The notes beneath the pieces were generated by a model that had not been told where the DNA came from, ran no database searches, and saw only the letters and a program-made list of their open reading frames with translations. A DNA stretch of 64,000 nt from Escherichia coli. GTDB taxonomy: Bacteria > Pseudomonadota > Gammaproteobacteria > Enterobacterales > Enterobacteriaceae. Shown piece after piece: positions 18,982-23,166 of the stretch. Location: NCBI RefSeq assembly GCF_048403405.1, contig NZ_CP183129.1; one strand, given 5' to 3'. Position 1 is the stretch's first letter; each line of letters opens with the position of its first letter. The position numbers were made by a program, and so were the translations under genes.

Positions 18982-20145
18982 TTATCCAGCAATGTAATGC
19001 GGAACGAAACGTGAGGTGTCTTTGGTGATCAGCGTGTTATCTTCACGGATCCCCATTCCGCACGCTTCATCATCGACAATCCAGCTACCGATGAGTGTGT
19101 AGCTATCGCCAAATCGCGGCAGAGGTTGAAACGCCTGGTAGATCATCGGTTCATCGGCGTAATCACCATCAGCGTGGTCAACGACGTTATTCTGACCGTC
19201 GAAAATGGTGACGTTTCCGCCTTCGCGTGAGTAGATCGGTTTACGCACATAGCTTTCGCCAGCGGCAATCTGCGGTTTTTCGCCCTCAAACCAGGATGCA
19301 AGAAGGTTAGGATGACCAGGAAAGAAGCGCCAAAGCAGCGGCATTAACCCTTTGTTGCTCAAGATACTTTTCCATAACGGCTCCACCCATTGCTCGCGGC
19401 GCTTGCGCAGCAGCGGACCGTTATCGTCACGCATCATCCACTCCAGCGGATACAGCTTAAATGCACGCTGGATGACATTATCATCAAGATCGGTCAGTAC
19501 GCCGCCGACGCCCAAACCGAGATCTTCAATGTAGATAAACCGCGACTCCTGCCCTGCCTGCTGGGCGCAGTCCTGCAAGTACAGCACGGTACTCCTGTCT
19601 TCATCGGTGTCCTGACAGCAGCAAAAATAAAACGGTTCCCGACTGTAAAGCTCGCTAAAGCGCGAAATCAGGCGTTCCTGAATGGCATTGTACTGATCGG
19701 CATCACGCGGAATAATGCCGCTGCGCCGGGCATCCTCCAGCCACAGCCACTGGAAATAAGCCGATTCATACAACGAGGTTGGCGTATCGGCGTTGTACTC
19801 CAGCAGCTTCACCGGCGCATTGCCACACCAGGCAAAATCCATCCGGCCATAGAGCGAAGGATCGCGTGCGCGCCAGCTTTCGGCGATCACATCCCAGTAC
19901 AACGGCGGGATCGCCAGTTGCGTCAGGATCTCTTCGTCTTTAACCGCGCAATCCACCACCTCAAGGCACATCTGATGCAGTTCCGCAGTTGGTTTTTCGA
20001 TCTGCTCTTCAATCTGACGCAGGGTAAAGCGGTAAGCCCGACTCTCATCCCAATAGATTTCATTGTCGATGATATGAAAGTCGAAACCGTTGTCAGCGGC
20101 GATCTGGTCCAGATCCCGCCGCACAGGAACGTTGTGTCTCAGCAT
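18982..20145 (-). CDS. yjfC: ATP-grasp ligase of the glutathionylspermidine-synthetase-like family, YjfC
   Basis: Track ORF to 20160; ATG at 20145 gives MLRHNVPVRRD..., 387 aa; last gene of the yjfI-C cassette. Confidence 0.85.
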   Translation of the reverse strand: MLRHNVPVRRDLDQIAADNGFDFHIIDNEIYWDESRAYRFTLRQIEEQIEKPTAELHQMCLEVVDCAVKDEEILTQLAIPPLYWDVIAESWRARDPSLYGRMDFAWCGNAPVKLLEYNADTPTSLYESAYFQWLWLEDARRSGIIPRDADQYNAIQERLISRFSELYSREPFYFCCCQDTDEDRSTVLYLQDCAQQAGQESRFIYIEDLGLGVGGVLTDLDDNVIQRAFKLYPLEWMMRDDNGPLLRKRREQWVEPLWKSILSNKGLMPLLWRFFPGHPNLLASWFEGEKPQIAAGESYVRKPIYSREGGNVTIFDGQNNVVDHADGDYADEPMIYQAFQPLPRFGDSYTLIGSWIVDDEACGMGIREDNTLITKDTSRFVPHYIAG

Positions 20146-20147
20146 GA

Positions 20148-20786
20148 TTAGCCTCCCCAATGCCCACGGGCGCTGGAAGAACGACCATAGCCGCCGCGAG
20201 AAACGGTTGACGCTTTTTTGGTGGTAAAGCCGCCCGAAGAGTAAGACTCTTTTTTGCCAGAACCGGAGCGCCAGGAGTAATCACCAGAAGTGTTGCGCCA
20301 GACGGGGCGCGAAGCAAAAGAGGAACCGCCGCTGTTATACACAAACTGCTCGTCGCGATCTTTACGAATAACCCGGCTTAACAAAAATCCAGAAACAACC
20401 GGGATCCAACTCTGTTCAACGTTGTCGTAGTAACAATTTTCATACTTAGACTGACAATTCTGCTGAGTCATATTCTTCGGAACATCGGCATAAAACGCCG
20501 CTTTGGCGTTGTTCCAGCCATGAGCACAGATATCTGAATTATTACCGTCATCAATACAATCCTGCACAGTCGAGTAAAACGTTCCGTCGCCGTCGTTATC
20601 GACATCGCCATTATCGCCACAACCTTTCAATACGAAAAAAGCGGCACCGCCCATTAGCACCAACGTTAAGTATTTTTGTGCGTAGCGATTGCGGCGCGGC
20701 TCAAAAGGATTATGCGGTCTTCCAATGCGACTGATCGCTCCGTGACCAATTTTACTGTTATTTCTTGATTTGCGTTTTCTGGCCAT
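20148..20786 (-). CDS. yjfM: DUF1190 bitopic membrane protein YjfM
   Basis: ORF 20148..20786, 212 aa; basic N-terminus, one TM helix, Asp-rich GDNGDVDNDGDG loop, Cys-containing domain, Gly/Ser/Tyr/Arg-rich tail. Confidence 0.8.
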   Translation of the reverse strand: MARKRKSRNNSKIGHGAISRIGRPHNPFEPRRNRYAQKYLTLVLMGGAAFFVLKGCGDNGDVDNDGDGTFYSTVQDCIDDGNNSDICAHGWNNAKAAFYADVPKNMTQQNCQSKYENCYYDNVEQSWIPVVSGFLLSRVIRKDRDEQFVYNSGGSSFASRPVWRNTSGDYSWRSGSGKKESYSSGGFTTKKASTVSRGGYGRSSSARGHWGG

Positions 20787-20795
20787 GATCGTCCA

Positions 20796-21194
20796 TTACC
20801 ATGTCATACAAGCTGCGTTAAAAATACCGCCAGCCAGTGCGGCGGTTCCCATAAACATTCCTGCTGCGGTATTGTGATTAATAATTTTTTCGCTTAATGC
20901 GGGCATATAAAGTCTGACGCCAGCAAAAACGAGTAACTGAATCACCAGTGCGATCCCGCCCCAGGCGAAATAGTCTGGAATACTCACCGCATTGATTGCC
21001 GCACTGGATAACGGGATCACGTAACCCAACAATGTACCGCTGAACGCCAGTGACGCCGCGGTATTATTGTTTTTGATTAACTGCCATTCGTTGTGCGGTG
21101 TAATTTTAGAATAGATAAACAGAAAAATAATCACCATAGCCACGCCAATAAAAAAATAGGCACTAAAGGCAAGAAGTGAATCCAGTATATGCAT
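20796..21194 (-). CDS. yjfL: DUF350 inner-membrane protein YjfL
   Basis: ATG at 21194 gives MHILDSLLAFSAYFFIGVAMV..., 132 aa, about 4 TM helices. Confidence 0.8.
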   Translation of the reverse strand: MHILDSLLAFSAYFFIGVAMVIIFLFIYSKITPHNEWQLIKNNNTAASLAFSGTLLGYVIPLSSAAINAVSIPDYFAWGGIALVIQLLVFAGVRLYMPALSEKIINHNTAAGMFMGTAALAGGIFNAACMTW

Positions 21195-21211
21195 TGTAAA
21201 CGTCCTTGTAA

Positions 21212-21871
21212 TTAACCAATAATATGAAGTGATGTCAGCGGGATATCGACACCCAACGCGCGCGAAAATAACCACTCTGGCTCGCCGAGATCGTTAAAAG
21301 ATTCCTCACCATTTAGCAGCAAATATTCGTAAGTATCTTCGGTTACTTGCCGTTGGTAGCCCATGGTAAAATTATGGACCTCCCATTTGGCATGGTTTTG
21401 ATTTTCTACTTTTTCCAGCATGTAGACGGGTTCGATATTTCCCGGTTCTTCGCTGTTAAAAAATCGCTGCCAGCGTTTTTCCTGCCAGTTTAAGGTCATT
21501 GCCCCTATCGCTTTGGCATTGATCGTCTCGCGCCAGTGACTCTCTTTACTAATACCGTAGCTCTCTTCATAGACAAAGAGCTTGATATCATCAATGTCAT
21601 CAATATTTTCGCCGCCGGTGGTATTGATTTGCAGAAATTCATCGCCCGAAGTGTAGTAGCGGAAAATCTGGCTACCGCCGCCCAGATCGATGCGGCTGAC
21701 GGCGGCTACCGTAAATTCCTCACCCGGCAGCGCAATCAGCAATTCATCTTCCAGCAAACGAAACGCTAACGTGTCGAGCGTAAAACCACTATTGAGATGC
21801 AGACCCAGCGGACCGCGAGCGATAGCAGGCTTATTATCCTTGCCAAACAGACGCTGGAAAAAACCAGACAT
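21212..21871 (-). CDS. yjfK: DUF2491 protein YjfK
   Basis: ORF 21212..21871, 219 aa, soluble; recognised as YjfK. Confidence 0.8.
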   Translation of the reverse strand: MSGFFQRLFGKDNKPAIARGPLGLHLNSGFTLDTLAFRLLEDELLIALPGEEFTVAAVSRIDLGGGSQIFRYYTSGDEFLQINTTGGENIDDIDDIKLFVYEESYGISKESHWRETINAKAIGAMTLNWQEKRWQRFFNSEEPGNIEPVYMLEKVENQNHAKWEVHNFTMGYQRQVTEDTYEYLLLNGEESFNDLGEPEWLFSRALGVDIPLTSLHIIG

Positions 21872-21891
21872 ATTTTATCCTTAAAATAGTT

Positions 21892-21914
21892 GCCAGCCTT
21901 GCAGTGAGGCTGGC
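21892..21914 (-). other. Intra-operon stem-loop between yjfJ and yjfK (GCCAGCC-9 nt-GGCTGGC)
   Basis: 7-bp GC stem directly after the yjfJ stop codon, preceded on the transcript by U7 and followed 5 nt later by UUUU. Confidence 0.4.
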
Positions 21915-21921
21915 AAAAAAA

Positions 21922-22620
21922 TTACTCGCCCTGTTGGCGTTGCAGTCTTGCTAATACATCCTGGGCGCTACTTTTATTGCTACCGCCTATTCCGGCTTCC
22001 GCCAGCTTTTCATCAAGATCGCGACCGTCTGCGACTTTTTCCAACTGTGCAGCAGCATCCAGACGAGCCTGACGTTCGGCCTGACGCGTTTGCAGGCGTT
22101 TTAAGGATTCTGCCGCTGTCGAAACGCTGGAAGATGCGCCAACGGTAGAGGTCGTTACAGCCTGTTGTGCACGCTGCATGGCTTCAGTGGCTTTAACGAC
22201 TTCCATTTGCTGCTCAAACTGAGCGATACGCTGCGCTGTCGCTGTAACTGCTTTTTCCACGCCATCACGAGAGACTTCCAGATTCGACAACACTTGCTCT
22301 TCAGCGGTAATGAGATTCTCAAGGCGCGCGATTTCTTCAGCAACTTCGTTAATCAACGACGGATTAACGTTCTTGCTTAACGCTTCCAGCGCACGGGCTT
22401 CCAGACTGGCTTTGCGCTCACGTAAATCTTTCAGCTTATCGTGACTTAATTTCACCCGCGCCAGCAGATCAACGCGAGATTTTCCGGCTTTATCGAGTTC
22501 AGCTTTAGCGTCACGGATATGCTGTTCCAGCATGCGCACGCCCTGGGTTTCTTCAATGGATTCTTCCGCCTGGGAGATAAACGATTTCCCCAGCGTAAAT
22601 AAACTTTTTAAAATTCCCAT
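21922..22620 (-). CDS. yjfJ: PspA/IM30-family coiled-coil protein YjfJ
   Basis: ORF 21922..22620, 232 aa; MGILKSLF... N-terminus and heptad-rich Ala/Glu/Lys/Arg sequence resemble PspA/Vipp1. Confidence 0.85.
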   Translation of the reverse strand: MGILKSLFTLGKSFISQAEESIEETQGVRMLEQHIRDAKAELDKAGKSRVDLLARVKLSHDKLKDLRERKASLEARALEALSKNVNPSLINEVAEEIARLENLITAEEQVLSNLEVSRDGVEKAVTATAQRIAQFEQQMEVVKATEAMQRAQQAVTTSTVGASSSVSTAAESLKRLQTRQAERQARLDAAAQLEKVADGRDLDEKLAEAGIGGSNKSSAQDVLARLQRQQGE

Positions 22621-22638
22621 AAATACCCGTCCTTGTAA

Positions 22639-23040
22639 TTAGAGTGAATATTCTTCTGTAATTTCAGCCAGATCCAATGCGTTATCTACCAGCGAGGTTA
22701 TCTCAAGCAGGATATCTTCAAGAGAAGATTTAAGCGATAACGCCCCGAAAACAATGTAATACTCTTCATGTTGCACGCTGGAGATCCCTACCGATGACAA
22801 CGGCATCATCTTCTGATTTCTTAATAAGAAGGTATTAAATTCATCTGGATTGCTGATACTACTTACCGGACAAATAAAGGTTTCGATAATCATTTGGCGG
22901 GAAGTAAATAGAATATTGATTTGCAAATCGCCATAATCATTCATTTTAATAATTAATGCGTTCTCGCCATTTGTTACATCAATATTTTGTTCAGGTACAG
23001 TTTGCAGCGCCGTCGCCAGCGCCAACGGATTCCATGTCAT
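22639..23040 (-). CDS. yjfI: DUF2170 protein YjfI
   Basis: ORF 22639..23040, 133 aa, acidic small protein; first gene of the cassette. Confidence 0.8.
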   Translation of the reverse strand: MTWNPLALATALQTVPEQNIDVTNGENALIIKMNDYGDLQINILFTSRQMIIETFICPVSSISNPDEFNTFLLRNQKMMPLSSVGISSVQHEEYYIVFGALSLKSSLEDILLEITSLVDNALDLAEITEEYSL

Positions 23041-23119
23041 ATATTATTCCATATAAATTAAGTTTAAATATTAATAAAATGAATATTTGCAGTACGTAAT
23101 TATCTTACCAGCTATAGAC

Positions 23120-23151
23120 AAAAAAAAACCATCCAAATCTGGATGGTTTTT
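23120..23151 (-). terminator. Strong intrinsic terminator after rlmB (A9-CCATCCA-AATC-TGGATGG-T5; symmetric, bidirectional in form)
   Basis: 7-bp stem flanked by a 9-nt A-run and a T-run; read on the minus strand it is hairpin plus U9, directly downstream of the rlmB stop. Confidence 0.65.
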
Positions 23152-23166
23152 CATAATTCAGAGGAA

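Follow-up and report, generated by a model that had tools for sequence, protein, structure and literature searches.

The 64,000-nucleotide stretch of Escherichia coli DNA analyzed here (the window) carries the chromosomal locus yjfI-yjfJ-yjfK-yjfL-yjfM-yjfC (b4181–b4186), which is already annotated and is built of two evolutionary modules: YjfI and YjfJ with YjfK (module A), and the triad of YjfL, YjfM, and YjfC (module B). To judge from its genomic contexts, this DUF350-DUF1190-ligase triad is the conserved core of the cluster. A joint membrane-stress/polyamine role for the two modules is, in our view, the best explanation of the whole, and a somewhat probable one.

The Locus in E. coli

The cluster runs along the minus strand from 23040 to 18982 in the order yjfI (23040..22639, 133 aa), yjfJ (22620..21922, 232 aa), yjfK (21871..21212, 219 aa), yjfL (21194..20796, 132 aa), yjfM (20786..20148, 212 aa), and yjfC (20145..18982, 387 aa). 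These coordinates use the K-12 RefSeq start codons; the program-made ORF list runs yjfL and yjfC further 5', to GTG/TTG codons. The first-pass annotation had described six co-directional genes with intergenic gaps of 18, 50, 17, 9, and 2 nt (yjfC starting 2 nt past the yjfM stop codon), and this is exactly what the ORF list with K-12 starts gives. Genes, order, lengths, and gaps are all the same as in K-12; the strain behind the window is not K-12, and its upstream region differs by a few substitutions, but nothing else substantive separates the two.

The window DNA is 100% identical to E. coli chromosomes, and 95–100% identical for most E. coli. The locus was found in 5425 of 5426 complete E. 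coli genomes, and at least 80% of it lies in a single piece in 5326 of those 5425. It occupies a fixed core-genome position between rlmB and aidB in practically every E. coli and throughout Enterobacteriaceae. Purifying selection acts on each of the six genes, with dN/dS values of 0.013–0.081 in a comparison with Escherichia whittamii (0.080 for yjfI, 0.019 for yjfJ, and 0.013 for yjfL).

Families of the Encoded Proteins

The gene identities and families proposed earlier (DUF2170, PspA_IM30, DUF2491, DUF350, DUF1190, and GSP_synth) were borne out by Pfam and by the K-12 annotation. YjfI matches DUF2170 (5.8e-44) and PDB 8Q8O (BacA; 5.8e-17) and scores 94 bits on the NCBIfam BacA equivalog, below the cut-off of 300 bits; it has a CesT/Tir-like chaperone fold and is a homologue of Pseudomonas aeruginosa BacA. 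YjfJ, named "PspA family protein YjfJ" in RefSeq, matches PspA_IM30 over model positions 1–220 of 220 (5.9e-58), which marks it as a PspA/IM30 (bacterial ESCRT-III-like) paralogue, and its N-terminus (MGILKSLFTLGKSFISQAEE), on a direct reading, resembles an amphipathic helix. The ring oligomers typical of PspA are reportedly not formed by YjfJ (PMC5333519), a report that touches on YjfJ oligomerization, on which the first-pass annotation had itself made its proposal depend. For BacA and BacB, a YjfI-like and a PspA-like protein, an interaction has been predicted (AF2 probability 0.981; PMC13092808), and BacB abundance rises on bacA deletion, as Wallart 2024 (PMC10948618) is cited in that paper. 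A YjfI-YjfJ interaction is an extrapolation from this Pseudomonas homologue in a different operon class. YjfK (DUF2491) is cytoplasmic and beta-rich and has no signal peptide; comparison of its fold gave no functional clue and no solved relative.

In module B, YjfL matches DUF350 (1.4e-33), has four hydrophobic segments, and is listed in RefSeq as a "DUF350 domain-containing inner membrane protein." YjfC matches GSP_synth (1.5e-148), lacks a signal peptide, and is near-identical to "YjfC" of PDB 7UK6/7UK7 (2.2e-273), so crystal structures exist. It is assigned as an ATP-grasp peptide–spermidine ligase of the GSP_synth family, in keeping with its RefSeq name, "peptide--spermidine ligase YjfC," and in vitro peptide-spermidine ligase activity has been reported for YjfC/YgiC (as cited in PMC11762307). 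The earlier statement that function was not established therefore holds for the joint role and is too sweeping otherwise, since YjfC structures, ligase activity, genetics, and an iModulon exist.

YjfM, an envelope protein, matches DUF1190 (9.3e-18) and consists of a basic N-terminus, one hydrophobic/lipobox-like segment, an acidic 4-Cys domain, a short hydrophobic motif, and a basic Gly/Ser-rich tail ending in ...ARGHWGG-COOH. Among 114 full-length DUF1190 representatives (50%-identity clusters, found with YjfM), 97 (85%) end in -GG, against 2.7% expected from tail composition, and another 13 in -GS. Gly occupies position -2 in 110 of the 114, Trp or Phe position -3 in 74, and tail lengths vary. 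This free Gly-Gly makes the YjfM C-terminus a candidate ligase substrate.

Modules, Relatives, and a Seventh Gene

On a distant metagenomic contig whose YjfM is 35% identical, genes for DUF2170, an unassigned 248-aa protein, DUF2491, DUF350, DUF1190, and GSP_synth follow in the same order. Other contigs carry DUF350-DUF1190-GSP_synth alone or preceded by a K+ channel gene, and two loci (L018 and L022) have the triad without any PspA gene. DUF1190 adjoins the ligase in every informative context, mostly with gaps of 0–5 nt, including in E. coli, Enterobacteriaceae, and L018. Elsewhere each module is also found without the other, and their adjacency could therefore be historical.

An MthK-like K+ channel gene lies between yjfJ and yjfK in 19 of the 5426 E. 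coli genomes and, among relatives, in Citrobacter, Atlantibacter, and an Enterobacter; in relatives it overlaps both neighbors. It is absent from the window. The "six-gene cassette" of the first-pass annotation is thus right for this DNA and incomplete as an arrangement, since relatives carry a seventh gene; the E. coli form appears, from these comparisons, to be a reduced version of a seven-gene arrangement. Kosakonia also lacks the channel gene, yet has all six yjf genes intact.

Comparison with Known Systems

CesT-like/PspA genes with an ATP-grasp ligase, DUF350, DUF1190, DUF2491, and a K+ channel form a published operon class, for which Ravi et al. (mSystems 2024) proposed a polyamine/membrane-dynamics hypothesis (PMC11237479). 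The window has all six families of these "third group" CesT/Tir-PspA operons in the described order and lacks their ligand-gated K+ channel. The earlier suggestion of a membrane-stress module with a ligase attaching an amide-linked amine agrees with this hypothesis and with the RefSeq name of YjfC. With pspF-pspABCDE/pspG, the cluster shares a full-length PspA_IM30 protein; it has no sigma-54 promoter, PspF, PspB, or PspC, YjfJ is instead partnered by a CesT-like protein and the polyamine ligase module, and it differs further in the reported lack of rings. The P. aeruginosa bac cluster (BacA PA3732/BacB PA3731) likewise has a DUF2170 gene followed by a PspA-like gene. It has a putative site for sigma-54, and its paper states that neither the operon nor its surroundings contain a spermidine-synthase homologue. 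From comparison with the published operon classes (PMC11237479), we infer that it belongs to a different class, without ligase, DUF350, or DUF1190.

Another DUF1190-ligase pair of E. coli, ygiB-ygiC, adjoins tolC. It is paralogous to yjfM-yjfC (YgiC scores 434 bits to YjfC), its YgiB also ends in -GG (...SRSMGG), and DUF350, PspA, DUF2170, and DUF2491 genes are missing there. GspS and trypanothione synthetase belong to the same ATP-grasp family (E = 6e-32 to 3e-37, C-terminal part) and share the chemistry of amidating a C-terminal Gly carboxylate with spermidine, that of glutathione being the one they activate; unlike these enzymes, YjfC has no amidase domain. YgiC, for which, rather than YjfC, the result is stated, has no Gsp synthetase activity according to PMC11762307 and PMC12506659, both citing Sui 2012. 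The ygiB gene is reportedly Cpx-regulated, and loss of YgiBC plus YjfMC worsens the tolC growth defect, as cited in bioRxiv 10.1101/2021.12.13.472529.

Regulation

An intrinsic terminator follows rlmB on the minus strand (23123..23152; 13-bp stem, A5 and T9 flanks), with a folding energy of -16.9 kcal/mol (z = -5.0 relative to shuffled sequences), essentially where a strong terminator had been noted (23120..23151). Its A5 run takes up five U residues of the nine by pairing, and the U-tract that stays free is only about 4 long. The T9 run (23120..23128, minus strand) has its last T 80 nt upstream of the yjfI ATG, and K-12 is the same as the window across this stretch. In heat-evolved K-12, a 1-nt deletion 80 nt upstream of that ATG activates yjfIJKL, a published iModulon turned on by promoter-region mutation; the cluster, whose up-regulation became fixed in the heat-adapted strains, is reported to be silent in almost all of some 1000 K-12 transcriptomes (PMC12492005). 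We infer that the deletion would fall in the T9 run, that is, in the U-tract of the rlmB terminator. Because yjfIJ is grouped with the genes before it in a published operon list (nsrR-rnr-rlmB-yjfIJ; PMC3946193) and the activating mutation is placed in the U-tract, insulation of the cluster by the terminator is probably incomplete; the terminator noted earlier stands, its full insulating effect probably not.

Upstream of yjfI, a candidate extended -10 element, TGgTAAGAT (23102..23110, minus strand), was recognized as a consensus match only; the motif ctggtaNNat is kept across Enterobacteriaceae in an alignment of upstream regions. Another promoter, TTAATA-17-TGGAAT, has been proposed nearer the yjfI ATG (PMC3946193). 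A search of the minus strand upstream of yjfI for TGGCAC-N5-TTGC with up to two mismatches found no sigma-54 site, in line with the first-pass annotation.

The 50-nt yjfJ-yjfK gap holds a GC-rich 10-bp hairpin followed by CUAUUUU (21890..21916, minus strand; -17.1 kcal/mol, z = -3.4, with none of 200 shuffles folding as well), possibly a partial terminator. It is present in three Escherichia loci (L001, L002, and L014) and in K-12; in Kosakonia the gap is 8 nt and has no hairpin. The hairpin occupies the site of the K+ channel gene in relatives. An iModulon of yjfIJKL without yjfMC argues against strict co-expression, and together with the stable hairpin it makes a single insulated transcript for all six genes probably incorrect.

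Proposed Mechanism and Alternatives

In the explanation we favor, YjfI would bind YjfJ, restraining or chaperoning it, and perturbation of the inner membrane would lead YjfJ to attach to it by the N-terminal amphipathic helix and stabilize it. YjfC, with ATP, would activate the C-terminal carboxylate of a peptide and amidate it with spermidine; YjfL and YjfM would organize this amidation at the membrane, and under stress the products together would tune the charge of the envelope or the polyamine status. An ancestral ligand-gated K+ channel gene at the yjfJ-yjfK site would have gone from most E. coli. Expression would arise from leaky transcription past the rlmB terminator, from a weak promoter ahead of yjfI, or from both; it would be attenuated downstream of yjfJ and independent of sigma-54/PspF. 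Counting against this explanation, the YjfJ-YjfC link rests on gene context and the modules also occur apart; YjfJ reportedly forms no PspA-type rings (PMC5333519), the iModulon leaves out yjfMC, and the cluster is reported as near-silent in K-12 (PMC12492005); YjfK offers no functional clue, and the YjfI-YjfJ pairing is extrapolated.

It is rather unlikely that yjfIJ (perhaps with yjfK) and yjfLMC are unrelated neighbors, a small Psp-like membrane-stress unit and a polyamine-conjugation unit that share no function. The triad without a PspA gene in L018 and L022, ygiBC alone beside tolC, CesT-PspA pairs in further classes of operon (the bac cluster, for example), the operon list that stops at yjfIJ, the stable hairpin, and the iModulon all speak for such a division, but the six-gene order is retained at 35% YjfM identity and in a recurrent operon class (PMC11237479), every gap except the 50-nt one is 2–18 nt, and the relatives' channel gene, overlapping yjfJ and yjfK, ties the halves together. 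We consider it unlikely that YjfC (YgiC) acts on a protein instead of a free peptide and amidates the free C-terminal glycine of its operon partner YjfM (YgiB) with spermidine, which would yield a membrane protein with a polyaminated tail, YjfL being the membrane partner. The Gly-Gly ending of DUF1190 and YgiB, the Gly carboxylate chemistry of GspS-family enzymes, and the constant adjacency of DUF1190 and ligase fit this idea, as does a charge pattern suiting a cytoplasmic tail: the 4-Cys loop carries a net negative and the tail a net positive charge in 107 of 110 members each, with a Cys-free tail in 99 of 110 and an uncharged stretch of median 18 residues in between. Against it, 92 of the 114 members have lipoprotein-type signal peptides, so most of the protein would be exported, whereas YjfC lacks such a peptide; the hydrophobic motif is short, with 13 uncharged residues in YjfM itself and a median Kyte-Doolittle hydropathy of 0.77 in a 19-residue window, leaving a second membrane pass a candidate only; and in an AF2 model of YjfC joined by a GS linker to the YjfM tail, the tail stayed at pLDDT ~30 throughout, with no docking signal.

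That the E. coli cluster is a cryptic, decaying remnant whose function was lost with the K+ channel gene seems very improbable. The rarity of that gene, the silence in K-12 transcriptomes, a degraded cluster in Salmonella enterica subsp. arizonae (L015), and frameshifted ORFs fusing yjfM to yjfC that circulate in E. coli would suit decay, but the strong purifying selection on all six genes within Escherichia, the largely unbroken locus across genomes, the intact channel-less cluster of Kosakonia, and the fixation of up-regulation in heat-adapted strains do not. Most improbable of all is an anti-phage defense or mobile-island cassette. PspA is historically linked with phage, GC over yjfI-yjfL is slightly low (0.44–0.46), and one metagenomic homologue adjoins nSTAND and SIR2-TIR genes; set against this, PADLOC gave no specific family, only two weak coiled-coil-type YjfJ matches (JetC, E = 5e-4; LmuB, E = 2e-3), the core-genome site is fixed, and the window's ORF list has no integrase, repeat, or tRNA flanks.

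The gene content and likely role of yjfIJKLMC are already in the literature and hence not new. To this known cluster, the present analysis adds the DUF350-DUF1190-ligase triad as its apparent conserved core, the free Gly-Gly end of DUF1190, and the absence of the K+ channel gene from most E. coli.

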